Below, piece after piece: positions 15,995 to 37,468 of a stretch of 64,000 nucleotides of DNA. The stretch's first letter is position 1; every line of letters begins with the position of its first letter. The notes beneath the pieces were generated by a model that made no database searches, had not been told where the DNA came from, and saw nothing but the letters and a program-made list of their open reading frames with translations. Origin of the DNA: an uncultured Alphaproteobacteria bacterium (GTDB lineage: Bacteria; Pseudomonadota; Alphaproteobacteria; Rs-D84); the NCBI GenBank assembly GCA_944389385.1, contig CALXMC010000004.1:8254-72253 (forward strand), given 5' to 3'. The translations under genes were made by a program, and so were the position numbers.

Positions 15995-16249
15995 AATATC
16001 ACGGGCATAAATGCGCCAGTGATACTGAACCGCAACGACCCGCGGGCGAATTAAGCCAATCAAACTATTTTCTGTACATGCCGTGAATGTCTGGCCGGCT
16101 GTGTGCGGTAGCGGGCGGTTGCCGTTTCGCAGAAGAATCAGGTGTCTTGCCGTAATTTGCGACATATTTACGTATTCTTACATATTGTAATTTTTGCGCC
16201 CTCGCGGGGGCAGCGTTCAGCGCGTTACAAGCATCAAAAAACTCGGACA

Positions 16250-18081: not shown

Positions 18082-18253
18082 ATTTTATCCTTTTGGGGTA
18101 TGCGTTGTAATTATACGATTTGGGTTAAAAACATTCAAGACGAATTCGATAATTTATACAAAAGGGTAATAATTCTCATAAAAAATATCAAAGTGTGTGG
18201 AATTTTAAGTATAGTAAAACAAACCCGCCTTGACAGCGGCAGGTTGAAATCTT

Positions 18254-18298
18254 TGGCTCGGGCAACTGGACTCGAACCAGTGACATACGGATTAACAG
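18254..18298 (-). other. 45-bp fragment identical to the 3' part of tRNA-Asn, starting in the anticodon loop (att site direct repeat)
   Basis: TGGCTCGGGCAACTGGACTCGAACCAGTGACATACGGATTAACAG is identical to 36220-36264. Similarity extends ~8 bp further (GAAAT-CTT). Confidence 0.85.
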
Positions 18299-18958
18299 CA
18301 AGTTCTTGATTTCAGGGCTTTTTTTACGATGTGTCGTGTTAGCCCAGATTTCCGCCACTTTTTGCACATATCTGTGTATGCGCCGTATAGCTGTTTTTTA
18401 GTATGTAGCAAAAAAATTGCACCCCCGTATACCCACAAGTGTCTAAATCATACAAAAATGACGTCCGCCAAAATGAAATTACGGAATGCGTTTATCGGGC
18501 AATAATCATACCTTGAATGCGGGTGCCATACGGTTGATTTCTGTTTTGTCAAATTTATTATACCACAAATCGCACTAAAAAGAAAGAGGTATCACATCGG
18601 ATATAAAAATAAGAGGTTTATTATTGGTATTAGCACCCTAAAAAACATGAAAAATCCCAAAATTCGATTCGGGGCAAAAGTTTGATTTTTTTGTCGGGTG
18701 CCGTCGATGAGCCGTTGTTTCAAAAACTGACAAAATATGATTTAATACTATTTAGACGTGTTTTAATGTAGGTTTGATACATTGTGATACAAATTTTTTT
18801 AGTAAAAACAGGACGTTTTTTGCTAGTTTTGCCAGACTTTTACTTTTTTATGTGCTATAAATTATATGTACAGATATAAAAAGTTGTTGTGATATCAGAT
18901 TGTATAAAGCGACCTTTTTATATCCTACAAACCATATTGAAACCCAAAGGAGAATAAC

Positions 18959-19168
18959 ATGGATTACCAATTCATGAACCATGGGGGACAAGAGAGAGAT
19001 ACAAGACAATACGCCCTGAACAAGGAAGCGTTTAAAGACAGACTGTTTACACCGAAACAATTAGCTGACTATCTTTGTTCGTCTGTTTCGGCATTAAGCC
19101 AATATCGTGCACTGGGGATTGGACCTGCGTACTTCAAGATCGTCAAAATGGTACGTTACCCCAAATAA
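18959..19168 (+). CDS. AlpA/Xis-like HTH excisionase-regulator
   Basis: 69 aa. FTPKQLADYLCSSVSALSQYRALGIGPAYFKI resembles the AlpA-family HTH. Immediately upstream of the integrase. Confidence 0.55.
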   Translation: MDYQFMNHGGQERDTRQYALNKEAFKDRLFTPKQLADYLCSSVSALSQYRALGIGPAYFKIVKMVRYPK

Positions 19169-19266
19169 GTGGCTGGAACAAAAAAAGAAGCGATAAAAAA
19201 TAGCTGTTTCTGCTGGATATTATGTTTTTATCGTGCATTGTGTGTTTGTAATAAAGGAGTGCACAC

Positions 19267-20475
19267 ATGGCAGAACAATGGAAATGCTATACAAAGCCGT
19301 TTCGGGACACTTGGATACATCTGTTGCATTCAGATGTTAACCTGCAGGTCAGCGACGGCACCATCCCAGGATTATTCCTGCGATATTCTGCGGCAACACG
19401 CAATATTCGGTTTTTCCTGGGGTGTAAAATAGATAACAAGAAATGCAATATTTTTATAGGTCGCTACAGAGATTATTCTATCAAAGATATTCGTGACATG
19501 GCGTGGAATATGCGGCATCAAATTGCCCAAGGCGAAGACCCACGCAGAAAAAGAATAGAAGAACAACTGAAAGAAAAAGAAACGCTGGGCGAACAGGTAA
19601 AAGTACTGTTCCCACAATATATGGACAAATATTCCAAAATATACAAGAAGCCACGAACCCAGGATTCTAATTGGGGGCAATATAGATTATATTTAGCGCC
19701 TATGTTTGATAAGCTGTACATACGCCAAATAGAAGAAAAGCATGTAATGGACGCCTATGCCAAGTGGGTAAAGAAAACCTCATTCTCAACCGCGAACAAA
19801 GCGCTGTCTCTGTTCTCTAATTTCTGGGATTGGTGCGAAATGTATAAATACGTAGACCGCAATACAAACCCATGCAAGTATGTCCGCAAAGGTTCAAACA
19901 AAGTTTATAAGCCACAAATACTGGACCAAGACGGTTATCGTGCATTATCGCATGCGCTGGATGTTGGGCCCCAGGTATCTAAAATGCACCCACGGTTATT
20001 CAATGCGTTGCGGGTGCTGATGCTGACTGGGGGTCGTGCGTCTGAAATAACCGGGCTAGAGGTAGAAGAACTTGCGCTTATGCACAAGGTAATACACCTG
20101 AAAGACAGCAAGACCGGCGCCCGGGATGTAAAACTGTCTGACGCAGTTATACCATACTTGCAGGCTGCGCTGGATGAAGCAACCGCACTGGGCAGCAAAT
20201 ATGTATTCCCAGGTGTTGGGAACGAGCACAGACCAATAAACAACATCCGCAAGCCATTTGAATGGGCACTGTCATATGCCAAGCTGCCACATATGCGAAT
20301 ACACGACCTGCGACATTCGTTTATCAGTATGGGTGCAAATATCGGTGAAAATATAGCTGCCATGAAAGAAGCAGCCGGCCATTCCCGTATAACCACCACC
20401 GAAGGATATACCCACATCATGGACAGCAGCACCTATCGTGCCATCAATAACGTTGCAAATGCAATATGTGCCTAA
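19267..20475 (+). CDS. int: Tyrosine site-specific integrase
   Basis: C-terminal catalytic region with R (GGRASE), HDLRHSF, HSRITTTEGYTH (H-x-x-R...Y). 402 aa; true start may be downstream. Confidence 0.8.
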   Translation: MAEQWKCYTKPFRDTWIHLLHSDVNLQVSDGTIPGLFLRYSAATRNIRFFLGCKIDNKKCNIFIGRYRDYSIKDIRDMAWNMRHQIAQGEDPRRKRIEEQLKEKETLGEQVKVLFPQYMDKYSKIYKKPRTQDSNWGQYRLYLAPMFDKLYIRQIEEKHVMDAYAKWVKKTSFSTANKALSLFSNFWDWCEMYKYVDRNTNPCKYVRKGSNKVYKPQILDQDGYRALSHALDVGPQVSKMHPRLFNALRVLMLTGGRASEITGLEVEELALMHKVIHLKDSKTGARDVKLSDAVIPYLQAALDEATALGSKYVFPGVGNEHRPINNIRKPFEWALSYAKLPHMRIHDLRHSFISMGANIGENIAAMKEAAGHSRITTTEGYTHIMDSSTYRAINNVANAICA

Positions 20476-20535
20476 ATGGTGCATGTTGCATTTCAGTAAA
20501 ATAAAAATAGGTTCTGTAAAACCTCTTTTGATTGG

Positions 20536-20569
20536 GGGGAACGGCGACCTCGAGACCTTGTTACACACA
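20536..20569 (+). repeat. ~34-bp imperfect direct repeat flanking the Fic gene (copy A)
   Basis: GGGGAACGGCGACCTCGAGACCTTGTTACACACA versus copy B GGGTAACGGCGACCCCGCCACCTTGCTACACAC (~85% identity). Confidence 0.6.
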
Positions 20570-20692
20570 GGTTTGAAAAATTGGTTCGCAGGTTCGCACT
20601 TTGGGTGTTTTAATAGTAATTACAATATGATAAGTGCGAACCTGGGGTGCGAACCTGGTTCGCACCTAAGAACATATTTCCTTATAAATCGA

Positions 20693-21799
20693 TTATCGTT
20701 TTTCTGGCAAACTATATTTGCGGCCTTTGTTTTGACCGGTGGCAACCAAGAAACCTTTGTTAACCAATGCGACAAATAGTTGGCGTACGCGCTGTGGCGA
20801 CTTGCCCGTTATAGAAATTGCATCCGCAGCAGTAACATAACCCAGCGTGCATAACTTTTCAGCCATAGCGATAAAGAACGTCCGTTCTGTTTTGTTCAGG
20901 TCGTCTATATTCAAATCGCTACATTTATCGCTAGTTATATCGCTAGTTTTTATTTCAGGATTAGCGATATTTATAACCATGTCGTCACCTTTCAGCGAAT
21001 TGTTTTCGCCCAGCAACAGATTTCCAAAGAACAAGTTCAGGTATTTATAGGTCCGTTTGATACCGCGCGGTATATTTTCATAGTTGGCACGAACCAAGGC
21101 ATTGCGAAAATATTCTGCATAATCCTTGAATAATTCGTTATCAGCAGCAAAGCCTTTATTGTGCAGATACTTGATTGCAAATACGGCGATTGTGCGCGTA
21201 TTGCCTTCGCGAAATGGATGAATTTGCCACAGGCCAGACACGAATTGCGCGATATGTTCAACTTGCGCACGTGTGTTAAGCGTACTGTAATCAAAACGTT
21301 CTTCGCGGTCAAAGTCGTATTCCAGCGTTGGCATAATGTCCATATGGCTGGCATAGTGCACAGTATCCCCCATCAGCACGTTTTCTGCCTTGATAATATC
21401 CTTGGTACGAAGATTCCCAACCCAGTGTTCAGGCAATGCCGCATTAAACAAATACTTGTGAATAGACAGCAAAGTAGTCGGCGCAAAGGTAAAAGACGAA
21501 TTGCTTAACAGTTCTGCAATACGGTTGGAAACGGTGTCGGCCTCCCAGTATTCAATACCCAGTTCGTCACCCTCTGGGGTGCGGTAATACTGGCGCAGCG
21601 ACTGATGAACTTCGTCATGACTCAGCTTGCCTTCGATATTATCACGCGCCACCTGGTACAGATAACGCGATGGTGTCAACCCATCAACCTGTTGCAGGCC
21701 AATGGCGATATCCCAATTACGTGCCTTTTCTTGTTTAGATGGCTCTTGGGCTGTTTTGTATTCGCTGATAAAATCTGAAAACTTTGCCATATCTTTCAT
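20693..21799 (-). CDS. Fic/Doc-family protein (AMPylator-like) with C-terminal winged-helix domain
   Basis: Fic motif HPFREGNTRT (HPFx[DE]GNxR). 368 aa. C-terminal wHTH-like segment (LVALVNKGFLVATGQNKGRKYSL). Confidence 0.75.
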   Translation of the reverse strand: MKDMAKFSDFISEYKTAQEPSKQEKARNWDIAIGLQQVDGLTPSRYLYQVARDNIEGKLSHDEVHQSLRQYYRTPEGDELGIEYWEADTVSNRIAELLSNSSFTFAPTTLLSIHKYLFNAALPEHWVGNLRTKDIIKAENVLMGDTVHYASHMDIMPTLEYDFDREERFDYSTLNTRAQVEHIAQFVSGLWQIHPFREGNTRTIAVFAIKYLHNKGFAADNELFKDYAEYFRNALVRANYENIPRGIKRTYKYLNLFFGNLLLGENNSLKGDDMVINIANPEIKTSDITSDKCSDLNIDDLNKTERTFFIAMAEKLCTLGYVTAADAISITGKSPQRVRQLFVALVNKGFLVATGQNKGRKYSLPEKR

Positions 21800-21877
21800 G
21801 CCTTACACTATTGATTATATCCAAGAAATACAAAAATTCCAGTTATTTAATGGGTCCTGTGACGGGCGTTTCATATA

Positions 21878-21911
21878 CGGGTAACGGCGACCCCGCCACC
21901 TTGCTACACAC
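21878..21911 (+). repeat. ~34-bp imperfect direct repeat flanking the Fic gene (copy B)
   Basis: See copy A. The two copies bracket 20693..21799. Confidence 0.6.
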
Positions 21912-21962
21912 TGATAAAAAAACAAGACCGCATGCCGCACTGTCTAATTTCATAAATCAGAA

Positions 21963-21996
21963 TTGATTTCATGTTGATTTCAATATTGATTTCATA
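21963..21996 (+). promoter_or_regulatory. Three tandem TTGATTTCA repeats at ~12-bp spacing in the divergent Fic/Nudix intergenic region
   Basis: ATTGATTTCATGTTGATTTCAATATTGATTTCATAGG. Followed by (AGT)5 microsatellite and a purine-rich tract. Confidence 0.4.
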
Positions 21997-22277
21997 GGTA
22001 AGGAAAGTAGTAGTAGTAGTAAAGAAAAGCAAAAGATAATAAAAATAAAAGATAAAGAAAAGGTAGTGAAAGAAGAAATGCACAAAAAATTGTTGAAAAC
22101 TTACGTAAAACTGTTGATATGTTGTTAGTTATGTCTAAATCATAAAATATCGCAAAATTTAACCTTAAATGTATCGTGGTGTATCTCTATGTATAAACGC
22201 TAAAATCCGCAGAAAATAAGGACTTTACAAACCCAAAAAAACAGTGCAAGATGGTGTTGTAAAGGAAAGGATTCAGT

Positions 22278-22664
22278 GTGAAAGTAACAGCTGCGATTTT
22301 TAGAAATGAGGACCGGGTTCTGCTTATGCGACGGGCGGCTGATCAGCCGTTGGCGGGCGAATGGGAATACCCCGGTGGCAAGTTTGAAGATGGCGAAGAC
22401 GGCCCAACATGCCTGCGCCGGGAACTGGCCGAAGAGTTGGGAATCGATGCGCAAATTGGCGACCTGATTACCATCGCAAAACATACAACAGATTCTGGCA
22501 AGGTTATCGAACTGCACACATACGAAATCAAATCCTTCACCGGCGAAATTCAACTGCGCGTCCACGATGATATGCATTGGGTGCCAGTCCAGGACTTGCC
22601 ATTCCACCCACAACTCCCCGCCGACCAAATCGTATCTAAAACATTACAAGCCAAAGGAAAGTAA
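22278..22664 (+). CDS. Nudix hydrolase (MutT-like)
   Basis: Nudix box GGKFEDGEDGPTCLRRELAEELGI (Gx5Ex7REUxEExGU). 128 aa. Stop 1 nt before next start. Confidence 0.8.
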   Translation: MKVTAAIFRNEDRVLLMRRAADQPLAGEWEYPGGKFEDGEDGPTCLRRELAEELGIDAQIGDLITIAKHTTDSGKVIELHTYEIKSFTGEIQLRVHDDMHWVPVQDLPFHPQLPADQIVSKTLQAKGK

Positions 22665-22665
22665 A

Positions 22666-24642
22666 ATGAGCGACGCTTTCTACAAAAACAGTATTCATAA
22701 CTTTTTGCGCCAAAGCGATGATGAAATCTTTGGTATTATCGCCGCAGGTGACAGATACGACACGGTTGCCGCACAAAAAGACGCCTGGATGGAACAAATT
22801 CGCGTGTTGAAATATGCGCTGGCATACGCGCCATCTGGCAGCATCCTGTTTGAATACACACTGCCACGTGTGGGCGGTCGCATAGATAACATCTTGCTGA
22901 TAAACAATACTGTTTTTGTTTTAGAGTTCAAGGTCGGCGCAGAAACATATGCCAGTGATGCAATCCGCCAGGTTCGCACATACGCATTTGATTTGCAAAA
23001 CTATCATGAAGAAAGTCGTCAGTGTAAAATCGTTCCTATCTTGGTGGCAACAGGTGTACCGGATGACTACCGCAAACACGATATGCCAGAAGATGTAATC
23101 CTGACTGACGGTGATGAATTGCGTAATATATTCATTCGCAACACAGATACTTCGTGCACAACAATCAATATGGACAAATGGGCAACTTCCAGATATGTCC
23201 CAACCCCAACGATTATCGAAGCCGCGGAAATTTTATACAGCAATCACTCTGTTGCGGATATTGCGCAAAATACGGCGGCTGAAAACCTGACCAAAACATC
23301 AGACGCAGTTCAGCGTATAATTGAACATTCAAAGCAGAATAAACAAAAATCTATTTGCTTTATCACCGGTGTGCCTGGCGCGGGTAAAACCTTGGCGGGT
23401 CTGAATATCGCAATTGAAAATCAGAAAACAACAGGGCAAAGTTATTCGTGTTTCTTAACGGGTAATCAGCCACTGGTATCCGTTTTACGCGAAGCGTTGG
23501 CCGCAGACGATCATCGGCAAAACGGTACGCAAATCACAGAAGCCCGCAATAAAGTAAAATCCTTTATCCAGATAATCCACCATTTTCGTGACGCGTCATT
23601 GGAAAATGTGGATGTGCCACCAATCGACAATGTTGTTATATTTGATGAGGCGCAACGCGCATGGGTTCAATCAATGCTATCTGGTTTTATGCAAGAGAAG
23701 AAGGTTGCTGTTCTTAATCGACTGACCAACGAACAGCGGGCACATTTCTTGTCTATGAGTGAACCAGAAATGTTAATTGACTATATGAACCGACACCAAG
23801 ATTGGGCCGTAATCGTCTGTCTTGTTGGCGGTGGTCAGGACATTAACACTGGTGAAGCTGGTATCCAGGAATGGTTCGCGTCATTAAAACGTTCTTTCCC
23901 AGATTGGAATGTTTACGTGTCTGGCGACATAACATCCAATGAATACCTGGGCGATCAATCGTTTACAGAACTGACCGATGGATTGAAATGCGAAACGATT
24001 AAAGAACTGCACCTGTCCGTATCATTGCGTGCACACAGAACATCCGATGTTGCGGGTTTTGTGGATTCTTTGCTGGATAACGATGCCGCAGCCGCCGCAG
24101 AAAAATATAAGCACCTGTCCGGAATTTACCCGATTTATATGACCCGCGACTTGGCGCGCGCCAAACAATGGGTGCGCGAACAGACCGCCGGCAAGGCATT
24201 GCGTCATGGTCTGATTGCCAGTTCAAATGGTCGCAGATTGCGTGCAGATGGTATTTGGATAGAAAGTAAGTGCAAGCCGGAAAAGTGGTTCCTGGGTGAA
24301 CGTGATGATATCAAGTCTTCATACTTTATGGAAGAAGCGGCCAGTGAATTTGATATCCAGGGCCTGGAAATAGATTATGCGGTTGTTGGCTGGGATGCAG
24401 ACTATAGATATGTAAACGGTGAATTCGAATGTTTTAAACCAAGTGGTTCGCGCTGGTTAACAATAAATCAAGAATACAAGAAACGTTATCTGAAAAACGC
24501 ATATCGCGTTTTACTGACACGTGCCCGTGAAGGTTTTGTAATATTCGTCCCACGCGGCGACGCGTCCGACACCACCCGTCAACCAGAATTCTACGACGCC
24601 CTATGGCAATACCTAACCGATATTGGGGTGGAGGAGTTATAA
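22666..24642 (+). CDS. DUF2075-family protein: N-terminal nuclease-like region plus P-loop ATPase/helicase-like domain
   Basis: Start set at ATG 22666 (RBS GGAAAG). Walker A FITGVPGAGKTLAG mid-protein. Walker B-like VVIFDEAQRAW. Overall order matches DUF2075 as I recall it. Confidence 0.6.
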   Translation: MSDAFYKNSIHNFLRQSDDEIFGIIAAGDRYDTVAAQKDAWMEQIRVLKYALAYAPSGSILFEYTLPRVGGRIDNILLINNTVFVLEFKVGAETYASDAIRQVRTYAFDLQNYHEESRQCKIVPILVATGVPDDYRKHDMPEDVILTDGDELRNIFIRNTDTSCTTINMDKWATSRYVPTPTIIEAAEILYSNHSVADIAQNTAAENLTKTSDAVQRIIEHSKQNKQKSICFITGVPGAGKTLAGLNIAIENQKTTGQSYSCFLTGNQPLVSVLREALAADDHRQNGTQITEARNKVKSFIQIIHHFRDASLENVDVPPIDNVVIFDEAQRAWVQSMLSGFMQEKKVAVLNRLTNEQRAHFLSMSEPEMLIDYMNRHQDWAVIVCLVGGGQDINTGEAGIQEWFASLKRSFPDWNVYVSGDITSNEYLGDQSFTELTDGLKCETIKELHLSVSLRAHRTSDVAGFVDSLLDNDAAAAAEKYKHLSGIYPIYMTRDLARAKQWVREQTAGKALRHGLIASSNGRRLRADGIWIESKCKPEKWFLGERDDIKSSYFMEEAASEFDIQGLEIDYAVVGWDADYRYVNGEFECFKPSGSRWLTINQEYKKRYLKNAYRVLLTRAREGFVIFVPRGDASDTTRQPEFYDALWQYLTDIGVEEL

Positions 24643-24646
24643 CCAT

Positions 24647-25480
24647 ATGATTAAAGAATATCCATTGCCACATCCGTTAAAGAATGATGACGTAGACACC
24701 TTAATGAAAAAAATAAGGATGATGGTTCGCACCATGGAATCATTTCACCCTCAGGCTACAAAAGACAAGGCTCTTATGGGGCTACATAGTTTGGTGGGGG
24801 CTATTATTTCTCTGTCGGCAGAGGTTTATGATGCTTTGCAAAATAACAGAGTTTTTGTGGCCAGTTCCATTACGTGCCAAATTTTAGAAGCTGAAATACA
24901 ACTGCTATGGTTAAACAAGCATTTTAATACCAGGGGTAAAGATTTTATAGATTTTGGATATGTTGAACAAATAGAAATGTTATGTGTACACCCAGATCGT
25001 AAAGATAGGGTTTTAGAATTACTGAAGCAAAATAATTGCGACAGATTCTTACGTAAAGGCCTTAAGAATCCAAATAGACTAGATCGTAACAGTTACAACA
25101 AAAAGTGGTATGGTGATACGATACAAAACATATCAGAAGATTATTTCAATCCTGTTTTGGAATCGATTCAAGACACACCAGAGTTGGTTGCATATTATGA
25201 AAACAAAGATATAAACTACGAAAATTATCAACTGTTTTGTGGCTACAAACACTTTTCACCATATTTAGTAAGAAGATTTTTCGCAACAAGTCAATCTTTT
25301 CAAGAAGATGAAAGCAAATATGCTAGGGTGGCGGTTTTGCAAACTGTTTTGAATTCATTACTAAATGTCTGTTTCGTTCTTGAACAACATGGCGATCCAA
25401 TATTGCATATCAAGCCACTCGCAACAGAAGGGTTGGCGCCCGCATCCGCCAAACAAAAAATACAGGAAGAACGCAATTAA
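24647..25480 (+). CDS. Hypothetical protein (operon member)
   Basis: 277-aa ORF starting 4 nt after the DUF2075 stop with RBS GGAGGAG. No recognised motif. Confidence 0.45.
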   Translation: MIKEYPLPHPLKNDDVDTLMKKIRMMVRTMESFHPQATKDKALMGLHSLVGAIISLSAEVYDALQNNRVFVASSITCQILEAEIQLLWLNKHFNTRGKDFIDFGYVEQIEMLCVHPDRKDRVLELLKQNNCDRFLRKGLKNPNRLDRNSYNKKWYGDTIQNISEDYFNPVLESIQDTPELVAYYENKDINYENYQLFCGYKHFSPYLVRRFFATSQSFQEDESKYARVAVLQTVLNSLLNVCFVLEQHGDPILHIKPLATEGLAPASAKQKIQEERN

Positions 25481-25548
25481 CATATTGTTCCCTTGACTTT
25501 ATGGTTTGTTTTGGTCTAACTTTCTTACTGAGGAAAGGTTCAAGAACA

Positions 25549-26529
25549 ATGGAATATGAAATTGATATCAGAGAAAATATGATATTGAGAAAGTGGCCAG
25601 TTTTACTGGATATTCTGTTGTATGATCATACGACAAAAAAAAATATTTTCTGGGCTACAGATTTATATGAAAACCATTATGGTAATAGATACTCATTTAG
25701 GTCTCAAATAAAACCGGAACTTATTACTGGTATAAACGATGGCATAATCAAACCTCGTGTAGCGAAGACTAAGAAAGCACAGCAAGATCGCGTTAAGGAT
25801 AAAGCAGAGGTTTTTACGCCCTCCTGGATATGTAACAAACAAAATAATTTGATAGATAATGATTGGTTTGGTTATGAAGGGGTTTTCAACAAAGAAAAAG
25901 ATGACAACACCTGGATCCCCACTAAGAAGCCTGTTGTGTTTCCAGAGGGGAAAAACTGGGTTGATTATGTTCGTGAATTGCGGTTAGAGGTTGCGTGTGG
26001 TGAGGCACCGTATTTAGTAAGTCGATACGATATTACAACTGGAAAAAAGATAAAAATACCTAATAGAATTGGTTTGCTGGATCGGAAACTCCGCATTATA
26101 AATGAAAATGCAGCCAGTGATAGCGAATGGTTTGCGATGGCAAAATGGGCATTCAAAAGCACATATGGTTATGAATGGCAGGGGGATAATTTATTGCTGG
26201 CTCGAGAAAACTTGTTGTTCACGTTTATTGAGTACTATCAGGATAGATTTGACGAAGAACCGGGATTAGAAATTTTAATGGAGATCGCAGAAATTATTTC
26301 TTGGAATATATGGCAAATGGATGGAATTCGTGGTGTTTTACCGTGTTCTTGCTGTAATTCAAAACATATAGACTTATTCGGTGAAAAAACTAGGGGGGGG
26401 TGTCTTGGTTGTAAAACCGGCGATATTCATAGTCATAACGGTATATATTGCAAGATTCGTGATTGGAATAGCAAAACAAAACGTCCAAAAACATTAACTT
26501 TTGTATCATTGTTAAAGGATATAAAATGA
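25549..26529 (+). CDS. Methyltransferase-like protein with degenerate gamma-class motifs X and I, no NPPY, and a C-terminal Cys cluster
   Basis: EVFTPSWICNKQNNLI resembles motif X of N6-adenine MTases and is near-identical in pattern to EVPTPINVCDNIINLI in the next gene. LEVACGEAPYLV resembles motif I (DPACGxGxFL). No NPPY. C-terminal CSCCN...CLGCK...C cluster. Confidence 0.45.
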   Translation: MEYEIDIRENMILRKWPVLLDILLYDHTTKKNIFWATDLYENHYGNRYSFRSQIKPELITGINDGIIKPRVAKTKKAQQDRVKDKAEVFTPSWICNKQNNLIDNDWFGYEGVFNKEKDDNTWIPTKKPVVFPEGKNWVDYVRELRLEVACGEAPYLVSRYDITTGKKIKIPNRIGLLDRKLRIINENAASDSEWFAMAKWAFKSTYGYEWQGDNLLLARENLLFTFIEYYQDRFDEEPGLEILMEIAEIISWNIWQMDGIRGVLPCSCCNSKHIDLFGEKTRGGCLGCKTGDIHSHNGIYCKIRDWNSKTKRPKTLTFVSLLKDIK

Positions 26530-29500: not shown

Positions 29501-30593
29501 GCCACTGGATAAAATTAAATTAAATGATAATATTGAAGAAGCAGGAGAAAATAAAATGCAGTTTCAAGCAGTTGTTGGAAATCCGCCATACCAAGAAGCG
29601 CGCCAGAATACTAGTGATAATCCTATATATCATTTATTTATGAATGTAGCATTTCTGCTGAGTAATAAAGCATCATTTATTACGCCTGCTAGGTTTTTAT
29701 TTAATGCCGGTAAAACCCCAAAAGAATGGAACAGGAAGATGCTTGACGATGAGCATGTTAAGGTTTCATCTTATGAAAGAGAATCTAAAAAGTATTTCCC
29801 TCATACCAGTATAAATGGCGGAATTGCAATAACTTATAGAGATACTTCAAAAAAATATGGTGCAATTAAATTTTTTCGACCATATAAAGAAATGGGGAGT
29901 GTTGCAGATAAAATATTGAATTACAAAAACTTTGAAAGCATCAAAGATATGGTTTATCTCCAAAATAAATTTAATTTAGAGGCGCTATATAAAGATTATT
30001 CTAAAGCTAAAACAAAAATTAGCTCTGCTGGTAGCGAAAAGCGAATAGTGTCATCTGCTTTTGAGAACCTTACTGAAGTTTTTTCAGATGTGATGCACAC
30101 AAAAAGTAGTGTTCCTATTTGTGGATTATTCAAGAGAAGAAGGATAGTCAAATACATTGAGGAAAAATATTTAGAACGTGGATCAAATATAGATCATTAT
30201 AAAGTTTTACTTTCTTCCGCTGATGGGGCGAGTGGTACCATAGGCAACCCTGTACCAGCAAGGGTGATTGGAGAGCCAGTTGTGTTGGATGCTGGTGTTG
30301 GATACACTCAGACATTTATTTCAATTGGAGCTTTTAAACGTAAAAAAGAAGCGGATAATTTACAGAAATATTTAAAAACTAGATTTGTTCGTTTCATGGT
30401 GGGGACTCTAAAGGCAACAAATGGGCTTAAGATAGAAGTTTGGTCAAATGTGCCAAAACAGGATTTTTCTGACGCGTCTGACATAGATTGGTCAAAATCC
30501 ATTGCTGAAATAGATAAGCAGTTATACAAGAAGTATGGGCTGGATAAGAAAGAAATTGATTTCATTGAATCTATGATCAAACCAATGGAGTAA
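26526..30593 (+). CDS. Fused GIY-YIG nuclease / SF2 helicase-ATPase / gamma-class N6-adenine methyltransferase / C-terminal putative TRD (Type ISP/IIG-like RM enzyme)
   Basis: N-terminus HIYAF-(9)-YLKVGDTYRTVKSRLEEW fits GIY-(9-11)-YIG...R...E. Helicase motifs I RFGKSFTAL, II LLIVDETHYGA, III LSGTPYRI, VI QAVFRLQN. MTase motifs X EVPTPINVCDNIINLI, I LDIASKAGEFA, IV VVGNPPYQ. ~450 aa after NPPY for target recognition. ATGA overlap with upstream gene. Confidence 0.7.
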   Translation: MKDLNLDEVIVGRVEPHIYAFTTNTIPNYLKVGDTYRTVKSRLEEWKKYFPNLKAEFDGSAKISDGVFVRDYSVHQYLEGGIHRDRLTPEILKQISPAAYFSKEFFKNATAQDVSDALTDIRESFANNDNRYSFYNLDRMPVVHQYASTGFWKPRPNQQDTIDKIKEAVEKGRTNLLMYAVMRFGKSFTALCCAKEINAEIVLVVSAKADVKEEWRKNVQSADNFRDDYIFADAKQLRDEEGLIKNTLDNKKKVVLFLTLQDLQGTDIKEKHKEVFDNKIDLLIVDETHYGARAEKYGAVLRQTKDIKQDYSTEGFVDIEEADKQIKTLKAKITLHLSGTPYRILMGSEFTKDDIIAFYQFTDIVKAQENWDKENLLKDEAEPEWDNPYFGFPQMIRFAFHPSTVAKAKLDELRKNGVSYAFSELFKPKSIYRAGDESHKMFVHESEILDLFTVIDGSKNDKNVLGFLNHDKIQSGNMCRHIVCVLPYCASCDALEKLIQDNADKFKNLRDYEVINISGVDAARTYRDVNAVKRKIKECEADNKKTLTLTVNRMLTGSTVEEWDTMIFLKDTASPQDYDQAVFRLQNQYVRKYVDPKTGQEIKYNMKPQTLLVDFDPNRMFMMQESKSQIYNVNTEVNGNSKLQDRIQEELRISPIITINQDKISQVDASDIIDAVSEYSSKRGVWDESKSIPVDFELLKDQQIFDVINSQGEIGSNQGLKVEGNVGDDVDIDVPPVELPEPPVEPKDPAPVVAVEKDDMKSLENKFKTYYSRILFFAFLTNNKVTSLDDVLNCITKEDNVRIAKNLGLKYQILVSIRNKINSYILQQLDYKIYDISKLAHDTEVEPINRAETALIKFGRFSESEVPTPINVCDNIINLIPDDAFLSLKKQNNAMLDIASKAGEFAIAICKRCEKIGIDIESIKDSVLAIPTSSVAYEFTRKVYEFLGLNINAIAAEFNSYDLLDVKMLDRRGRPTKNIDYARVAAILKQTKPLDKIKLNDNIEEAGENKMQFQAVVGNPPYQEARQNTSDNPIYHLFMNVAFLLSNKASFITPARFLFNAGKTPKEWNRKMLDDEHVKVSSYERESKKYFPHTSINGGIAITYRDTSKKYGAIKFFRPYKEMGSVADKILNYKNFESIKDMVYLQNKFNLEALYKDYSKAKTKISSAGSEKRIVSSAFENLTEVFSDVMHTKSSVPICGLFKRRRIVKYIEEKYLERGSNIDHYKVLLSSADGASGTIGNPVPARVIGEPVVLDAGVGYTQTFISIGAFKRKKEADNLQKYLKTRFVRFMVGTLKATNGLKIEVWSNVPKQDFSDASDIDWSKSIAEIDKQLYKKYGLDKKEIDFIESMIKPME

Positions 30594-30597
30594 CGGT

Positions 30598-30942
30598 ATG
30601 AAAATGTTGCACATTTTTATATTACTTGTATTTCCACTTGCGCTGGTTGGATGTTCTGAACCTGCACCGGAATGCTGGTCGCCTTCTGTAAAAAGCTTAC
30701 TAAAAGATATAGCGAAAGAAAGCTATAACAAGGAAATAGTAGGGTTTGAAGAAGTTGTGGAGATGGAAGTGTTTAATAATGTTACTCCACAAAGACGTGC
30801 TTGCTCAGCCAAACTGGTAACCAAATACAATGAAAAAGAAGCTACATACCAGTATTTTGAGGTAGATTATGTCGTTAGAACCATCCGTGGCGAAAATAAT
30901 ATGTACTACACTTCAGTAACCGATATGCATCGAAAATTATAA
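30598..30942 (+). CDS. Small lipoprotein, hypothetical
   Basis: Signal peptide with lipobox LALVGC. 114 aa. Confidence 0.5.
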   Translation: MKMLHIFILLVFPLALVGCSEPAPECWSPSVKSLLKDIAKESYNKEIVGFEEVVEMEVFNNVTPQRRACSAKLVTKYNEKEATYQYFEVDYVVRTIRGENNMYYTSVTDMHRKL

Positions 30943-30962
30943 GATATAGGATAAGATGAAAA

Positions 30963-31676
30963 ATGGATACATGTAATATTTTGGAATATATTGGCATGGG
31001 AGGCGATTATGTTATTAAAAATATAGTCAAACTTCTTACTAGCTGGCCTTTTATTGTACTGGTTGTGTTTTTTGCGCTCAGAAAATACTTTGTCGCAATT
31101 TTGAAAAAAATAAAAGAAGATTTGCGAGTAAAAGACAACAAATTTTCACTTGGTGACTCAAATCAGCCAGATATTCAAAATAGCACACAAGACAAATTAT
31201 TTGATATTCCTGCAACTACTTCTGATAAGAAGTTAAAAAAGCGTAAGGCAGAATACGATCTTCCAGAATTGCCTGATACGGGCTTGAAGGCTTATACATT
31301 AGAAATAGAAAATAAGTTAAAGAAAGATTTAGCGGAATCGCCGTATAAAAAAATAGATATAATGGTTAGGGATTCGACAAATTATAGGATAGCAACGGAG
31401 TTTGAACGTATATATAGAATTATCTTTGGAAGCCAAATACGATTGTTACGTCATTTGGAAGCAGCAAAAACACTAACAAAAAATGAAGTAGCTAAGTTTT
31501 TCAAACAAGAAAAACGTAAAATGCCGGATAGCAATATTGAATTAGAACCTTGGACCAAATTTGTGCAATCTCAGGGACTGATGGAGTACAAAGATGGGGA
31601 ATATACAATTACAAATAAAGGGTTAGCTTTTATAGCCTATTTAGCCCTTTTCAATTATGAGGATAGGCTGTGGTAA
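30963..31676 (+). CDS. Hypothetical membrane-anchored protein
   Basis: N-terminal TM (WPFIVLVVFFAL). K/E-rich soluble domain. 237 aa. Confidence 0.45.
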   Translation: MDTCNILEYIGMGGDYVIKNIVKLLTSWPFIVLVVFFALRKYFVAILKKIKEDLRVKDNKFSLGDSNQPDIQNSTQDKLFDIPATTSDKKLKKRKAEYDLPELPDTGLKAYTLEIENKLKKDLAESPYKKIDIMVRDSTNYRIATEFERIYRIIFGSQIRLLRHLEAAKTLTKNEVAKFFKQEKRKMPDSNIELEPWTKFVQSQGLMEYKDGEYTITNKGLAFIAYLALFNYEDRLW

Positions 31677-31728
31677 AAATAAAAAGAAAAAATAATGAAT
31701 AAATAGCCAAGTATCATTTTAAATAATG

Positions 31729-32247
31729 TTATATATTAAAAGTAGTAAAAAAATTTTGTAGTTCTTTATCTGAAACAGTGTGTGACAATATATCACTTAC
31801 ATTTTTCAAATTTGTTTTTTCTTTTGGATTTAATCTTTGGTGTCTTAAATTTTCAAAACATTTGCGTATAAGATGCTGTTTGGTGTCCGGTAAATAGGCG
31901 ATGCATGCTAAATGATTATTTTTTCTTTTGTTCATTAAATCAGATTCATTTTCAGTGCAGATTTTTCTGATGTCAAAATGAGAACATCCGGATAAATATT
32001 GTGTAGGTCTGGATGTTAATGAATCTTTTATCAAACATAACCATTCTTTTTCTGTTACAGAAAACGTTAAGCTATGATTTGTATAGTCTTTTGATGTAGA
32101 AACAAAAAAATACAGTACTTCCCGAATAAGAGGCATCCGGTTTATAAATAATTTATATTTACGTTTGCAAACATTTGTGGTTTCTTCTACAGATTGTTCA
32201 TCAACGTAACACCAAAACGGTTGAAAATATTCCATTTTAAGCAGCAT
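31729..32247 (-). CDS. Putative toxin partnered with a Panacea-domain antitoxin (no recognisable family)
   Basis: 172-aa ORF. 11-nt overlap with upstream Panacea gene in operon arrangement. No known toxin motif seen. Confidence 0.4.
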   Translation of the reverse strand: MLLKMEYFQPFWCYVDEQSVEETTNVCKRKYKLFINRMPLIREVLYFFVSTSKDYTNHSLTFSVTEKEWLCLIKDSLTSRPTQYLSGCSHFDIRKICTENESDLMNKRKNNHLACIAYLPDTKQHLIRKCFENLRHQRLNPKEKTNLKNVSDILSHTVSDKELQNFFTTFNI

Positions 32248-32725
32248 ACATATTTAAAACTTCACCCATATGCTCTGTGCCGCCAAGAGTCGCACCAATT
32301 AAAACCATAGGTTTTGTGTTATAGGCTATTTCTGTTAAAGTTTTAGCTCCGTATCCCTGCACATGTTCCAGCATAGTAGAAACAATGTTCAGTTCATCTG
32401 GTGACAAAGAATCTGTTTCTACTGATGTAGGATCGGTAAGATTGTAAACTACGTGCTCGTCGCTTCCAAAGAAACAGGATTCTGCAGATATCGTTCCTTC
32501 TTCGCGCATGTTTTCAAGGTTTTTGTAAATAGTACTATCAAAAGGACCAAAATTCCAACGGATATATTTAAATTCGGATATAGGTTTCCCAATATTGCGA
32601 ATTGCGGCCAAGTCAATCAAGTATGATATTTTTAGCAAACTAGTAACTCCGCGTGGGCCATCACGCAAAATGAGCGCCAAAAGCTGTTTCGTTTTCTGAC
32701 ACATAAAATTTCTCTTTGAGTTCAA
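32237..32725 (-). CDS. Panacea-domain (DUF4065, GepA/SocA-like) putative antitoxin
   Basis: KQLLALILRDGPRGVTSLLKISYLIDLAA...ISEFKYIRWNFGPFDSTIYKNLENM fits the DUF4065 pattern (LQKLLYLAD...W.YGPV...Y). Confidence 0.5.
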   Translation of the reverse strand: MNSKRNFMCQKTKQLLALILRDGPRGVTSLLKISYLIDLAAIRNIGKPISEFKYIRWNFGPFDSTIYKNLENMREEGTISAESCFFGSDEHVVYNLTDPTSVETDSLSPDELNIVSTMLEHVQGYGAKTLTEIAYNTKPMVLIGATLGGTEHMGEVLNMYAA

Positions 32726-33216
32726 TGCAATTATAACACATTATGTTAAAATTATAAAAGCATAAAATTAGGTTTTTAGAAAAATAGGACTAAAAAATAA
32801 AAAAAGCAACAAAAATATCTCGTTGCTCATGCTGACAATTATACCATAATTTGCTTAAAAAGTCAATAATAACTAGTTGTTGGTCACGAAAATATGGACT
32901 TGTAATAACTTGACATCTGTGTCAACTTGTGCTGGATGCGGCGGGGCAACCATGTCTGCCGGCATGTTAGGTTGCCGTTGTTTGTTCTGCGGATAGCTCC
33001 AACTCGTGTAATGATCGGCATGCTGCGAAATAAAGCATAATAAAATCCGTCTTATTACTGGGCTCAATTTCTCGAAAATGTTTGTACTTCATAGACAATC
33101 CTTTTAAGGTTGTCGTATTTGGCATAATCTTTCGTCACTTGCCCAGTCATTTGTTGTAACTAAAGGATATTGCTTGTTTTTCAATTTTTTGGTAATTTGG
33201 AACAAAAGGGGACAAA

Positions 33217-34017
33217 ATGGCAGATTATAAGGAATATCTGGATAAAATAAGAAATTCGCAGTTGTTATATTTTGATTCATTTCCATTGGATATGACGTCT
33301 TGTGAATATAATGTGCATTTGTTGTTGAATAAAATGGCGGAAGCAAGAAAGTCATACCTTTTGCTAATGGATAATGAACGATTTACGGATGCTATGTTGG
33401 TGGCAGGACATTTGCTAGAGAATGCAGCGGTGATCAATTATCTTTCTGCTAGCTTGCAAGAAGCTAATACAAAACAAATAAGCAAATATCTGGCACGAGA
33501 AACGGTACAAACTCTATGTGATTTATTCAAATTTGTAGGCGATGATAATGTGGATGCGGAAACTCAAGAAAATATAGATTTTATAATGGATGATTTTAAG
33601 AATAGATGCGACATAGTTGTATCGAAAAAAGCGGAACAAAGTCACGAAGAATTGGTCCAGACTATATTGATGGCTATGACAAATTCGGAAAAATTAAGAA
33701 TTATAAAAAATAATTACGAATTTCCGGTGGTTGAAGATTATTTGAGGCCGTTTAGGAAAGATTTATCAAATTTTTATGGTTTTTCCGGTATTGATAAAAA
33801 GCTTGTGTTGTTTTATTCGTCATATTGCAAAATAAAACACTGCGGGGCGGCTATGTATGTGCCAGTTCTATGCAAAGATATGGTTGTTATGAATAAAAAT
33901 CAGTACAGAGGCCTTAGCCCTATAGTTGTCTGGATGTGTTTGGAATACACAGAAAAGAATATAAAAAATATATTGTCAAAAATAAAACCAGAATTAGGAT
34001 TAACAGCCAAAAACTAG
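33217..34017 (+). CDS. Hypothetical protein (266 aa), convergent with reverse transcriptase
   Basis: Clean ORF. No recognised motif. Confidence 0.4.
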   Translation: MADYKEYLDKIRNSQLLYFDSFPLDMTSCEYNVHLLLNKMAEARKSYLLLMDNERFTDAMLVAGHLLENAAVINYLSASLQEANTKQISKYLARETVQTLCDLFKFVGDDNVDAETQENIDFIMDDFKNRCDIVVSKKAEQSHEELVQTILMAMTNSEKLRIIKNNYEFPVVEDYLRPFRKDLSNFYGFSGIDKKLVLFYSSYCKIKHCGAAMYVPVLCKDMVVMNKNQYRGLSPIVVWMCLEYTEKNIKNILSKIKPELGLTAKN

Positions 34018-34034
34018 ATGTTTTTTATAACGTT

Positions 34035-35576
34035 TTAATTTATTGGTTTATTGATAAGTGTTGTTATAAATTTGTTAAGTTCCACATCTTCTGAGTCTAT
34101 AATCTTTTTAACGCGTTCAAAATGTTTTCGCATTTGTTTTTTCAATGTGATATCGCCCATATCGTCAAAGGCTCTATTGACATAGGCCCAGAAAGTTCTT
34201 TTGCCTAGGTGTGTGTAATTCCTATATAAACTTCTCCTGTATAGTTTGGTTTTGATTTGTTTGGGGGCTTGGCCAGCTTCGACCAATCGTTTAATTTTGT
34301 TTTGTGTTGCTAAGCGCATGGATCTAATACCACGTTTGGATTTCCGTAAATATCTTGCCATACTAGAACCACGAATTTTTATGTCTTTGCCATCAAACGT
34401 GAATCCTAAATATTGTAAAGGGTCTTCGATTATTCTGTCAGAAGTAAAATCATAACATTTGCTTTTAGATTTTTTATTATCTTCGATTTGATGTATTGAT
34501 AAATATTTTCCTTGTTCTTTGATGGTTGTCATAATATGTCGGCATATATCTTCTTTTGAATCTTTATCGCATATAATCAAAATATCATCAGAATAACGTC
34601 TGTATACGGCACCATGGTTATTACAAAATTCATTCATGGATTTATCAAATGGCAGCATATAAATATTCGCTAATAACGCCGAAAGGGGAGAACCTTGCGG
34701 AATACCATATGGTGCATCTGTACCTTGAACACCAGGGTTAACATCAAATGTATGATTGTTGATTTTTTCTTTATTACAGATTTTTTGGTGTTGTTTATAC
34801 CATTGTCTAAATTTATGGAAATCGGACATATTGTTAAATAATTTTTGCGGTAATTTATATCCCCTTCGCAACGGGCAGTTTAAACAGGTTTTTGCAGTTG
34901 GAATACAATGCATACATTGCAAATACATTTTTATGATGTCAATATCGATGAAACTGTATTTAGTCAGTGTTTTATAAATATTGAAATGATCTGGTGGTAG
35001 GGTGTCGCAAGCGTCATCTCTACTAAGGAGCGCAGCCCATTGTTTTTTTAGGTTTTTATGGTCAATATAGTCATAAAAACTTTTTATATCGAATGCGAGA
35101 GCTAAGCAGTTGTTTTTTCTGCTTTTTATTATATCAAATACTTCTCGTGCAAAAGTAATATTATTTGCGACTTTTTGCATGTGTTTGGACTTACGGTATG
35201 CTAATACCACATCACCGAGCCCCAATTTTGAGAGCTTTTTTTCATATAAATCATACAATATAGTTGCATAATATGAAAAAATCATTGAATCAAAATGGGC
35301 GGCATATCTGATTGGACGTTTTTTTACAATAGATTGTTGTTGGTCTCTTGGCGTGGTTTTATCTATTTTAGATACGCGCCGTTCTTCAATGTCATACCCA
35401 ATAAAAGGCAGAAAGGGATGTTGGGCTATTTTATTGGCATTGGTTATATACTCGATAATGTTCTTAGCTGCGCTAGATATTGTGCCGTTTGGTAATCTGT
35501 ACGCGTTGATTGGAGCATCAATATGTTTATATTTTTTTCTATTATTATAAAAAAAAGATTCCCAATCAAATTCCAT
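34035..35576 (-). CDS. Stand-alone reverse transcriptase (defence-associated/Abi-like or retron-like; unclassified)
   Basis: RT motifs: motif 1 KKRPIRYAAHFDSMI, motif 2 LALAFDIKSFYDYIDH, motif 4 GIPQGSPLSALLANIYM, motif 5 YRRYSDDILI (YxDD), motif 6/thumb LQYLGFTF. ~90-aa insertion with CxxC...CxxC between motifs 2 and 4. No maturase or endonuclease domain. Confidence 0.75.
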   Translation of the reverse strand: MEFDWESFFYNNRKKYKHIDAPINAYRLPNGTISSAAKNIIEYITNANKIAQHPFLPFIGYDIEERRVSKIDKTTPRDQQQSIVKKRPIRYAAHFDSMIFSYYATILYDLYEKKLSKLGLGDVVLAYRKSKHMQKVANNITFAREVFDIIKSRKNNCLALAFDIKSFYDYIDHKNLKKQWAALLSRDDACDTLPPDHFNIYKTLTKYSFIDIDIIKMYLQCMHCIPTAKTCLNCPLRRGYKLPQKLFNNMSDFHKFRQWYKQHQKICNKEKINNHTFDVNPGVQGTDAPYGIPQGSPLSALLANIYMLPFDKSMNEFCNNHGAVYRRYSDDILIICDKDSKEDICRHIMTTIKEQGKYLSIHQIEDNKKSKSKCYDFTSDRIIEDPLQYLGFTFDGKDIKIRGSSMARYLRKSKRGIRSMRLATQNKIKRLVEAGQAPKQIKTKLYRRSLYRNYTHLGKRTFWAYVNRAFDDMGDITLKKQMRKHFERVKKIIDSEDVELNKFITTLINKPIN

Positions 35577-36219
35577 TGTTATAACCCAACAGCAAAATAC
35601 CCGGGAGACGCCAGGTTTGCGCTAACCATTTGAGACGTCTCTCGTAAACCTTGATTCTACTAAGCTGTGCTCAGTTTGGCTGGTCATCCTTGCTGTTCAC
35701 GCAAAAGTACACGCATAAATTATCAAAGGTTCTATATTTGTCGTAATGAACGTTATTATGAACCAAGGGAGGTCTTGATGATATTCGCACAAATCTTGTT
35801 TAAATGCTTCAATATTCAAGTTTGCCAAGATTCACTGGTCATAGTATTCTTTGCGTTGCAATGGATACTTGACTTCGTTTATTCGATCCCCCTGAACCTA
35901 AAGAACAGGGCAAATTAAATATAATTTTCTTTGGCAGGATTTCAAGTGGTTGAAATGATTTTTTTACGGTATTTGGTTTAGTTTTTTGTAACATAAATAT
36001 AAAACTTGCATTATGTTCAAAATATGTAGACAATCTTACTGATTGAAAAAGCATAAGTTATTCATAAGACGACGGATAGGTTACGGATCCTGTGTAGCTA
36101 TTGTGTAGCCAGAGGGGTGTTTTATGGCGTATTTTGGTGTATCGTAGTATGCGTAAATACAGAAGTGTTAATTTAAGAAAAATGCCGCAAACCTGCGGGG
36201 TTTACGGCGGAAATTCTTG

Positions 36220-36295
36220 GCTCGGGCAACTGGACTCGAACCAGTGACATACGGATTAACAGTCCGTTGTTCTACCGACTGAACTATGCCCGAAC
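36220..36295 (-). tRNA. tRNA-Asn (anticodon GTT), CCA encoded
   Basis: 76 nt: TCGGGCA TA GTTC AGTCGGTA GAAC A ACGGA CTGTTAA TCCGT ATGTC ACTGG TTCGAGT CCAGT TGCCCGA G CCA. Cloverleaf folds with GTT anticodon. Confidence 0.85.
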
Positions 36296-37287: not shown

Positions 37288-37468
37288 CTTTGATATTTTT
37301 TGAAACAAATGGCAAAGCCCACAATACTTACAAAAACGACAGGGTAAGAGTTTTGTTGGATTATTCCAATCATTTGAATTTTCCAAAATATCCCCGACCC
37401 AAGGATTTTTTTCTTAGTTCAACCAAACATCAAACCTTAGTTCGCCCAGCGACAAATAATCATCCACA

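Follow-up and report, generated by a model that had tools for sequence, protein, structure and literature searches.

P4-like elements and CP4-57 of Escherichia coli (IntA with AlpA at ssrA) carry a P4-family integrase and a small helix-turn-helix (HTH) protein of the AlpA type that promotes excision. The defence hotspots of E. coli and Pseudomonas aeruginosa and the tycheposons of Prochlorococcus occupy a conserved tRNA-adjacent site with alternative defence sets and with tandem or decayed elements. In Islander tDNA islands, a tRNA gene is interrupted by means of a tyrosine integrase and made complete again by island DNA; one end is marked by the rebuilt gene, the other by a displaced fragment (PMC4383910). 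The sublocations used by tRNA integrases are the anticodon loop, the T-loop and the 3′ end; in the anticodon-loop class, the identity of attB extends from the anticodon loop to CCA (bioRxiv 10.1101/2020.11.02.365908, citing Williams 2002). The asn-tRNA islands of Enterobacteriaceae (HPI, ICEKp, EhGI1) encode phage/P4-type integrases and form a hotspot of several repeat-bounded modules, some of them integrase-less, with combinatorial content (PMC2801613). The element described here reads as a 17.9-kb defence island in a tRNA-Asn gene. It lies in a stretch of 64,000 nucleotides (nt), referred to as the window, from contig CALXMC010000004.1 (GCA_944389385.1; positions 8,254-72,253, forward strand); all coordinates without a locus number are window positions. 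The host, 'Candidatus Enterousia', is an uncultured alphaproteobacterium of the ruminant gut.

The probability that this tRNA-integrating island, with its P4-type integrase and the anticodon-loop sublocation of tRNA-Asn, originated by the action of a tyrosine integrase is put at about 0.85. The sequence-only reading of the window had proposed such an island, and this part holds: an intact tRNA gene, a displaced repeat copy and an integrase gene inside are all present, and relatives independently support integration and mobility. The island shares with the Islander class the split and restored tRNA gene. It differs from it in the place of the integrase gene, which is at the fragment end and away from the rebuilt tRNA, in the host, an uncultured alphaproteobacterium, and in the integrase itself, to which no characterised one is close (identity to phage integrases of 27% or less). 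The target and the integrase type are those of the enterobacterial asn-tRNA islands; those islands have a 17-bp repeat at the tRNA 3′ end, and the window has 45 bp that reach the anticodon loop, a different sublocation. The cargo consists of defence genes in place of genes for siderophores or virulence, and a conjugation module is absent. Unlike in CP4-57 and P4-like elements, the alpA-like gene is located directly upstream of int and is a pseudogene, and P4 replication or satellite genes are absent. The integrase family and the host also differ from those of the defence hotspots and tycheposons, and one backbone (alpA-int-fic-NUDIX) is found across more than 13 species-level genomes. The island is a further example of a known element type and adds little conceptually. 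Its value is that of a well-resolved example, whose organisation in backbone and slots can be traced through an uncultured lineage.

tRNA-Asn as the probable attachment site

The intact tRNA-Asn(GTT) gene (36218-36293, minus strand) was found by ARAGORN and Rfam (74 bits). Its displaced 3′ part, the fragment-side att junction, is located at 18253-18298. Read base by base, 18253-18298 and 36217-36262 are a perfect direct repeat of 46 bp (the repeat finder gives the pair 18246-18307 / 36210-36271). Of these, 45 bp (18254-18298) correspond to tRNA positions 76 back to 32, that is, from the encoded CCA to the first base of the anticodon loop (CTGTTAA); the match is 45/45, as had been read from the letters. 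The second copy (36218-36262) is the 3′ 45 nt of the intact gene. An exact repeat of 46 bp cannot be due to chance in 64 kb. It encloses 17,919 bp. The seven bases beyond the repeat are alike without being identical, with GAAATCT on the fragment side and GAAATTC on the tRNA side.

The two flanks are of different types. Island-free intact tRNA-Asn genes (L002, L005, L008, L053; related loci are given as L numbers) are followed by GAAATCT, then by the native terminator. In the window, the fragment retains this flank and the native intrinsic terminator (18222-18245, minus strand; hairpin and T-run found by terminator scan), and the rebuilt tRNA has GAAATTC and a different terminator, a terminator-like hairpin that the island would supply (36184-36208, minus strand). 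The native flank at the fragment and the island flank at the rebuilt tRNA therefore match the standard integration model (Islander, PMC4383910). The tRNA-side copy of the repeat is presumably supplied by the island, because its outer flank is of the island type, not of the native type. The pepE promoter is located further left than the native terminator. In same-species contigs with other cargo, homology to the window ends at 36207, ten bases past the tRNA end.

A conserved arm is found at each end. The int-side arm (P arm, 18299-18457) is conserved in all integrase-bearing relatives: 84-93% identity in islands with a near-identical integrase, about 70-76% where the integrase is 87-92% identical. 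The tRNA-side arm (36006-36217) is 82% identical in L043 and 75% identical in L042 and adjoins the tRNA-Asn of both. A second conserved block extends from about 18537/18660 to alpA. Relatives hold inserts of 0.4-4.9 kb between the int-side arm and this block, which defines a variable cargo slot before alpA; the insert of L043 encodes AbiEii. The predicted attP junction is ...GGCGGAAATTCT, the 45-bp core, then CAAGTTCTTGATTTCAGGGC...; the predicted repaired attB is ...GGTTGAAATCTT followed by the full tRNA. A 133-bp copy of the tRNA-side arm in L039 was discarded as an attP example, as it does not adjoin any tRNA core. Logan contigs L014-L016 end inside the repeat and are uninformative as junction evidence.

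A crossover in the anticodon loop had been proposed, and a polymorphism agrees with it. In seven loci of metagenome-assembled genomes (MAGs), the fragment joined to the identical arm has a T-stem variant of compensatory type, with GT in core positions 12-13 and AC in 27-28. Because these variant fragments would be host DNA up to at least position 28, the exchange is placed in core positions 29-45, the last 17 nt of the core (variable loop, anticodon stem and loop), and is not mapped to the base. This placement assumes a window-type T stem in the island-borne core of the seven loci, whose intact tRNAs are outside the fetched 10 kb, which weakens it. As far as core polymorphism can tell, the T-loop and 3′-end sublocations are excluded and the anticodon-loop sublocation is supported.

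The same site is used by other elements. At least five unrelated element arms start directly after ...ATTAACAG. Exact-protein look-ups gave 23 contigs for FabI, 18 for PepE and 22 for the neighbouring 138-aa (amino acid) protein, all from the same species; the island arrangement is the commonest one (9/23 FabI contigs, 11/18 PepE contigs). Other occupants of the pepE-tRNA interval encode type I restriction-modification (RM), MmeI-like and EcoO109I RM, a second reverse transcriptase (RT), Dnd-like genes, RloB with AAA_21, a KAP NTPase with a polysaccharide gene cluster, or a different HTH_17-integrase pair. The pepE-side left flank of the window also precedes tRNA fragments decayed by 2 nt in L066, L069 and L071, where unrelated arms follow. 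L071 and L010, on one contig of 30,328 bp, delimit a block of 26.5 kb between repeats, in which a resolvase, an MmeI-like enzyme and a type I RM system are encoded. The occupants of L066, L069 and L064, at the same anticodon-loop base, include EcoO109I RM with a 494-aa RT, and a different pair of HTH_17 protein and 407-aa integrase. A further element family is seen in L052 (509-561), a JGI metagenome contig in which the same 45-bp core is joined to another arm (AGGCGGGTAAGTTGG...). On these junctions, the pepE-tRNA-Asn-fabI interval is a hotspot used at the same base by at least five unrelated element families. It is a natural experiment on site choice, with several unrelated elements at one base of the tRNA-Asn anticodon loop.

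The following series of events is proposed. The P4-type integrase would recombine the attP of the island with the chromosomal tRNA-Asn, with strand exchange in the anticodon stem-loop region. The island would bring its own tRNA positions 32-76 and a terminator, so that the tRNA gene is rebuilt on the fabI side; the original 3′ part and the native terminator would be displaced by 18 kb, beside pepE. The backbone of the family consists of an att arm, alpA/xis, int, fic and NUDIX, and a DUF2075 helicase often comes next. Defence modules would be exchanged in two cargo slots, one between att arm and alpA, the other downstream of the backbone. The cargo of this copy is a methyltransferase with a type IIG enzyme, a Panacea-antitoxin pair, and a probable long-form DRT2 RT with its putative non-coding RNA (ncRNA). 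No conjugation or phage genes that would account for transfer from cell to cell are present.

Spread of the family and present state of this copy

The integrase (402 aa; 19267-20475, plus strand) is located at the fragment end, as had been noted, with the RT (34035-35576) at the tRNA end. It has Arm-DNA-bind_3, Phage_int_M and catalytic domains (Pfam PF13356, PF22022 and PF00589, the last at 7e-20) and a complete catalytic set: R257, H346-x-x-R349, H372, Y381. The integrase scan (one genome per GTDB species) gave 35 loci, all from uncultured ruminant-gut Alphaproteobacteria, many of them 'Candidatus Enterousia'. In 13 of these loci, the gene is 98.4-99.1% identical in nt. Purifying selection on the integrase is indicated, as only 1-2 aa changes are found among 11-20 substitutions. 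An alpA-like gene and Fic accompany the integrase at 87-100% identity, usually with NUDIX and in five loci with the helicase; Fic is 98-100% identical beside int in 14 loci. Judged by this constant company, Fic and NUDIX travel with the integrase as backbone and are not variable cargo. The backbone ends near 22.7-24.6 kb, and the content downstream of it is variable among relatives.

Two relatives are complete and repeat-bounded. L043 (15.9 kb, repeat 45/45) carries AbiEii, Mrr, a PLD nuclease and DUF488. L042 (14.3 kb, integrase 78% identical) carries Fic-wHTH (winged HTH), NUDIX and helicase, M78 with Beta_protein, and two methylases with a PD-(D/E)XK nuclease. Nine different left flanks precede fragments that are joined to one and the same island arm (CAAGTTCTTGATTTCAGGGC). 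The island of L018 matches that of the window at 97.1% over 2.9 kb, while the fabI of L018 reaches 79%, a difference that indicates horizontal transfer. On such comparisons the element family is one that spreads horizontally between species. One integrase backbone with two cargo slots, in more than 13 species-level genomes, gives a view of defence-gene shuffling in bacteria that have not yet been grown; the shuffled modules are restriction systems, toxin-antitoxin pairs and reverse-transcriptase defences.

The state of the window copy is a separate matter. AlpA/Xis-type factors promote excision. The alpA/xis-like gene (HTH_17; 18959-19168, plus strand) is at the fragment end, as the sequence-only reading had stated, but it is a frameshifted pseudogene: in comparison with four relatives, an 11-bp deletion and one extra A lead to a stop after 69 aa (84 aa in relatives). 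The truncation removes the end of HTH_17, including a conserved tryptophan; a Gly-to-Val change is also present. The 69-aa open reading frame (ORF) has no match in Pfam or NCBIfam, HTH_17 included. The intact 84-aa relatives, encoded upstream of int, match HTH_17 at 33 bits (cutoff 27) and phrog_66, 'excisionase and transcriptional regulator'. The integrase of the window also has a private change, C256G, adjacent to the catalytic R257. L011 and L013, from two different samples, have this island arrangement too, each with alpA called at 69 aa; L011 was confirmed to carry both the alpA deletion and the integrase change. The changes are considered real and fixed in the lineage because they recur in separate samples. 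From the known role of AlpA/Xis-type factors, excision of this copy is probably reduced or lost. The frameshifted excisionase gene illustrates early domestication, a first step toward fixation of an island.

Several points weigh against a mobile island integrated by its own integrase. The alpA frameshift and C256G together mean that this copy may be immobile altogether. A location of the integrase at the fragment end rather than beside the rebuilt tRNA is the less common layout. No arm-type integrase-binding repeats were found: nothing is common to both arms beyond chance 9-mers. Mobile contigs can be mis-binned in MAGs, so the count of different species is weaker for short contigs. No pepE directly joined to an intact tRNA-Asn was found in the 23, 18 and 22 contigs or in the JGI scan. 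A comparison with genomes that lack the insertion, as suggested by the sequence-only reading, gave no clean empty site: intact island-free tRNA-Asn genes with native flank and terminator exist (L002, L005, L008, L009, L053), but their left context differs, and a pepE-tRNA-fabI junction is not among them. The circular form suggested by that reading was not recovered. The junction scan pattern covered attB, attP, attL and attR, and gave 0 matches in IMG/VR and 2 in JGI metagenomes (L052, L053), neither of them attP: L053 is an intact tRNA-Asn in another context, and L052 is the junction of another element. Assemblies rarely capture circles. Excision and integration are inferred, because neither the empty pepE-tRNA junction nor attP was found.

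The most likely alternative is a fixed variable locus: an old integration, now immobile, with the diversity of the pepE-tRNA interval arising mainly by homologous recombination in the conserved flanks (pepE, fabI and the repeat), by which strains would exchange entire segments. The odds are against it as a full explanation, though it deserves serious weight. The alpA frameshift, the private change next to the catalytic Arg, the recurrence of an identical defective copy in several samples and the lack of an empty site and of an attP junction all favour it. So does an integrase-less repeat-bounded segment at the same tRNA-Asn (L007, 92-9880): 9.7 kb with a direct repeat of about 76 bp (tRNA 3′ part and terminator), which encodes RloB with AAA_21, DUF2188, and a pair of methyltransferase and type IIG enzyme 63-71% identical to that of the window. 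This segment may be what remains of an element, or may be mobilised in trans. Decayed fragments at the same pepE-adjacent position in other strains point the same way. In L012 (9700-10000), L067 and L068, a KAP NTPase and a polysaccharide cluster lie beside pepE and about 13 nt of the tRNA 3′ end remain (degenerate in L012, where just 8 nt of the fragment match the window), which suggests an old, largely deleted att scar. Against fixation stand the mobility of the family, with a backbone 98-99% identical beside nine flanks and in hosts with fabI at 79%, and the synonymous-only divergence of an integrase under selection. The window fragment matches at 45/45, versus a 2-nt decay beside other elements, which argues for a comparatively recent event. 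Moreover, fixation concerns the present state of the copy, not its origin. Turnover at a fixed locus is plausible for that present state and for part of the diversity of the site.

A composite origin is unlikely: a collapsed tandem array, or a backbone with separately acquired low-GC cassettes (RM, toxin-antitoxin, DRT2) that no longer move together. The GC content of the island, 0.377, differs from that of its flanks (0.414 and 0.448), a comparison that the sequence-only reading had suggested; within the island, it steps from 0.422 in the left 7 kb (18299-25480) to 0.346 in the right 10.7 kb (25481-36217). This step, the position at which the backbone ends in relatives with differing content downstream, and the presence of the DRT2 gene with a 266-aa gene beside a different integrase in L054 fit a composite. 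Tandem arrangements are also suggested in L026 and L046, where island-type cargo is located left of internal fragments. However, no internal copy or remnant of the core was found inside the window island (search allowing at most 6 mismatches), which leaves no third copy, and both conserved arms are exactly at the island ends, so that the present island has the limits of a single element. Islands of this kind normally have a mosaic interior.

An island integrated as one element is also preferred to a prophage, a phage satellite (P4- or PICI-like) or a conjugative or mobilisable element, which is very improbable. The P4-type integrase with an AlpA-like regulator, the small size and the integration in a tRNA gene recall satellites, but the scanned ORFs lack any domain of capsid, terminase, primase/replicase, relaxase or type IV secretion proteins, and hence any gene for structure, packaging, replication or conjugation; in 50,697 phage records, the best integrase match reaches no more than 27% identity; and IMG/VR contains neither integrase relatives nor an att junction. 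A partial duplication of the tRNA gene without site-specific recombination is hardly credible: partial tRNA copies can arise in this way and no empty site was recovered, but the copy begins exactly at the anticodon loop and extends to CCA, the arm joined to it is conserved in every relative with the integrase, at least five different elements have the same boundary, and native and island flank types segregate as in the att model.

A probable long-form DRT2 reverse transcriptase and its leader

In KpnDRT2, rolling-circle reverse transcription of an upstream ncRNA by the RT gives repeat DNA; the transcript of this DNA is antisense to the ncRNA, contains a ribosome-binding site and a start codon, lacks a stop, and constitutes neo (PMC11100668). 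For divergent DRT2 clades, ncRNAs are predictable and the annotation of Neo is 'more challenging' (Tang et al., PMC11100668). The RT of the island (probably a long-form Drt2, UG2 family, 513 aa; 34035-35576, minus strand) matches PADLOC Drt2 at 6e-126, the best of 62 RT models, and NCBIfam Drt2 at 387.9 bits (cutoff 390). It belongs to a clade of RTs of 513-580 aa that share 33-37% identity with the canonical Drt2 (about 425 aa); its identity is 30-34% to annotated plasmid Drt2 genes and 30-37% over annotated Drt2 overall.

The leader was compared in eight sequences: the window and seven non-redundant homologues (L054, L056-L061; 82-46% identity). L055 repeats the RT protein of L054. In 8/8, a promoter-like site is followed by a conserved non-coding leader of 250-360 nt; in the window, the site is at 35945-35918 (TTGAAA-16-TATATT) and the leader with its putative ncRNA at about 35911-35577 (minus strand). 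Its stem-loops are conserved: 29 of the 71 predicted pairs show a compensatory change in a five-sequence alignment of the closer homologues. No Rfam family matches the leader, even at E < 10. Two UGAC(C/A)AG motifs are found in every leader, 137-161 nt apart (UGACCAG at 35840-35835 and 35685-35680 in the window).

The antisense strand carries a candidate neo-type template (35767-35918, plus strand): a Shine-Dalgarno sequence (GGGAGG, 35767-35772), an ATG at 35778 and a stop-free frame. A Shine-Dalgarno sequence with ATG or GTG is present at the homologous position in 8/8. The distance from the start codon to the end of motif 1 is 57-66 nt and a multiple of three in all eight, and motif 1 reads Leu-Val in frame in all eight. 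The genomic stop of the antisense frame (35916-35918) is within the -10 box, outside the predicted RNA. KpnDRT2 (PMC11100668, PMC12039810) likewise has a single Drt2-family RT gene, a promoter, a structured leader of roughly 330 nt, an antisense strand with ribosome-binding site, start codon and stop-free frame, and a short motif at both ends of the candidate template. It differs in several respects: the RT of the window is about 90 aa longer and 33-37% identical, the motif of its clade is UGAC(C/A)AG where KpnDRT2 has ACA, and the spacing of the copies is 137-161 nt as against 120 nt.

This locus probably combines a Drt2-type RT with an ncRNA and a neo-type coding capacity, the template junction being undefined. 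More tentatively, and with a better chance of being wrong than right, the leader of the long-form clade would template a neo-type gene of different architecture, with a unit of about 46-54 codons bounded by UGAC(C/A)AG and one extra base per jump. With one added base, the unit of the window is 156 nt, or 52 codons. Three observations make such a gene less certain. The stop-free antisense stretch (69-101 codons in 8/8) gives P = 0.02-0.27 in single-sequence shuffles. The motif-to-motif distance is 2 mod 3 in 6/8, so that a continuous frame needs one extra base per jump. With this base added, the unit is stop-free in just 4 of those 6 homologues. With P = 0.09 for the window, the stop-free frame was rejected as stand-alone evidence. 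The ACA-1/ACA-2 rule of KpnDRT2 was also tried on the long-form clade and discarded: no in-frame ACA pair gives a stop-free unit. The long-form leader is a concrete case on which to ask how widespread neo-type gene synthesis is; if the proposal is true, long-form DRT2 is a defined second solution to RNA-templated de novo gene synthesis.

Other genes of the island and its surroundings

ORF products were searched in Pfam, NCBIfam, PADLOC and PHROGs. The cargo had been read as defence-rich (Fic, an RM-like operon, DUF2075, a Panacea pair and an RT). The RM operon, the Panacea gene and the RT stand as such; Fic, like NUDIX, is backbone, and the DUF2075 helicase recurs in five related islands. The Fic-domain protein (20693-21799, minus strand) matches Pfam Fic at 5.8e-11 and PADLOC PDC-S72 at 6e-97. 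Its active-site motif, HPFREGNTRTIA, is non-canonical or degenerate (canonical: HxFx[DE]GNGRxxR). The protein always accompanies the integrase and may be an island regulator or maintenance factor rather than a defence gene product. The Fic homologue of L042 has a C-terminal winged-helix DNA-binding domain.

The NUDIX hydrolase (22278-22664, plus strand; Pfam NUDIX 2.4e-20; 87-95% identity in relatives) is encoded directly upstream of the helicase. The latter, a candidate defence gene of the DUF2075 / Schlafen-group-3 type (22666-24642, plus strand), matches PF09848 at 2e-72 and PADLOC PDC-S41 at 3e-250. It is followed by a DUF5677-like protein (24623-25480, plus strand; weak Pfam match, 25.3 bits for a cutoff of 27.1 bits). 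The RM operon consists of a stand-alone DNA methyltransferase (25501-26529, plus strand; PADLOC MTase_II 4.5e-112) and a single polypeptide of 1355 aa (26526-30593, plus strand; PADLOC REase_MTase_IIG, 1281 bits, full length). Its domains are a T5orf172-like N-terminus (weak Pfam match), a ResIII helicase and an Eco57I-type methylase; by this predicted combination of nuclease/helicase and methylase in one polypeptide, it is a type IIG enzyme.

Two ORFs follow (30598-31676, plus strand), of 114 aa (lipoprotein-like N-terminus) and 237 aa. A two-gene operon (31729-32725, minus strand) encodes a Panacea antitoxin (32237-32725; SocA_Panacea 3.3e-13) and a 172-aa protein (31729-32247), with an overlap of 11 nt. 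A Panacea toxin-antitoxin pair had been claimed: the antitoxin domain is there, but the overlapping partner matches no toxin family and is only a candidate toxin by its position. The 266-aa ORF (33217-34017, plus strand) is convergent with the RT, as also in L054 (4560-5360) and L055 (3542-4342), relatives with 82% identity. It has a 93% homologue in L029 (20692-21204), is absent beside more distant RT homologues, and is probably a co-travelling neighbour, not a component of the system. The 114-, 237-, 172- and 266-aa ORFs have no significant match in Pfam, PADLOC, PHROGs or, where tested, NCBIfam.

The island is flanked by pepE (peptidase S51, 17344-18081) and fabI (36414-37238). Beside the fabI flank, a perfect inverted repeat of 359 bp (37468-37826 and 42391-42749) surrounds a 4.56-kb segment with NUDIX-ASCH, a divergent metK-like gene, tRNA-Lys and others. 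The region right of 37826 is in the opposite orientation in L002, L005, L006 and L008 compared with the window, L004 and L007; the segment looks invertible. On the other side, a tandem array (about 12,900-16,500; TRF rows 13265-15371) has units of 167-243 bp with 76-84% matches and a low coding density. Each unit carries a palindrome (TTCAACCAnAGGTTGTATT / AATACAACC), of which a lone copy is found at 37740-37778; the array is also present in L012. In the same species, a type II-C CRISPR-Cas system (Cas9, Cas1, Cas2), absent from the window, is located right of fabI in L003 (14457-19071).

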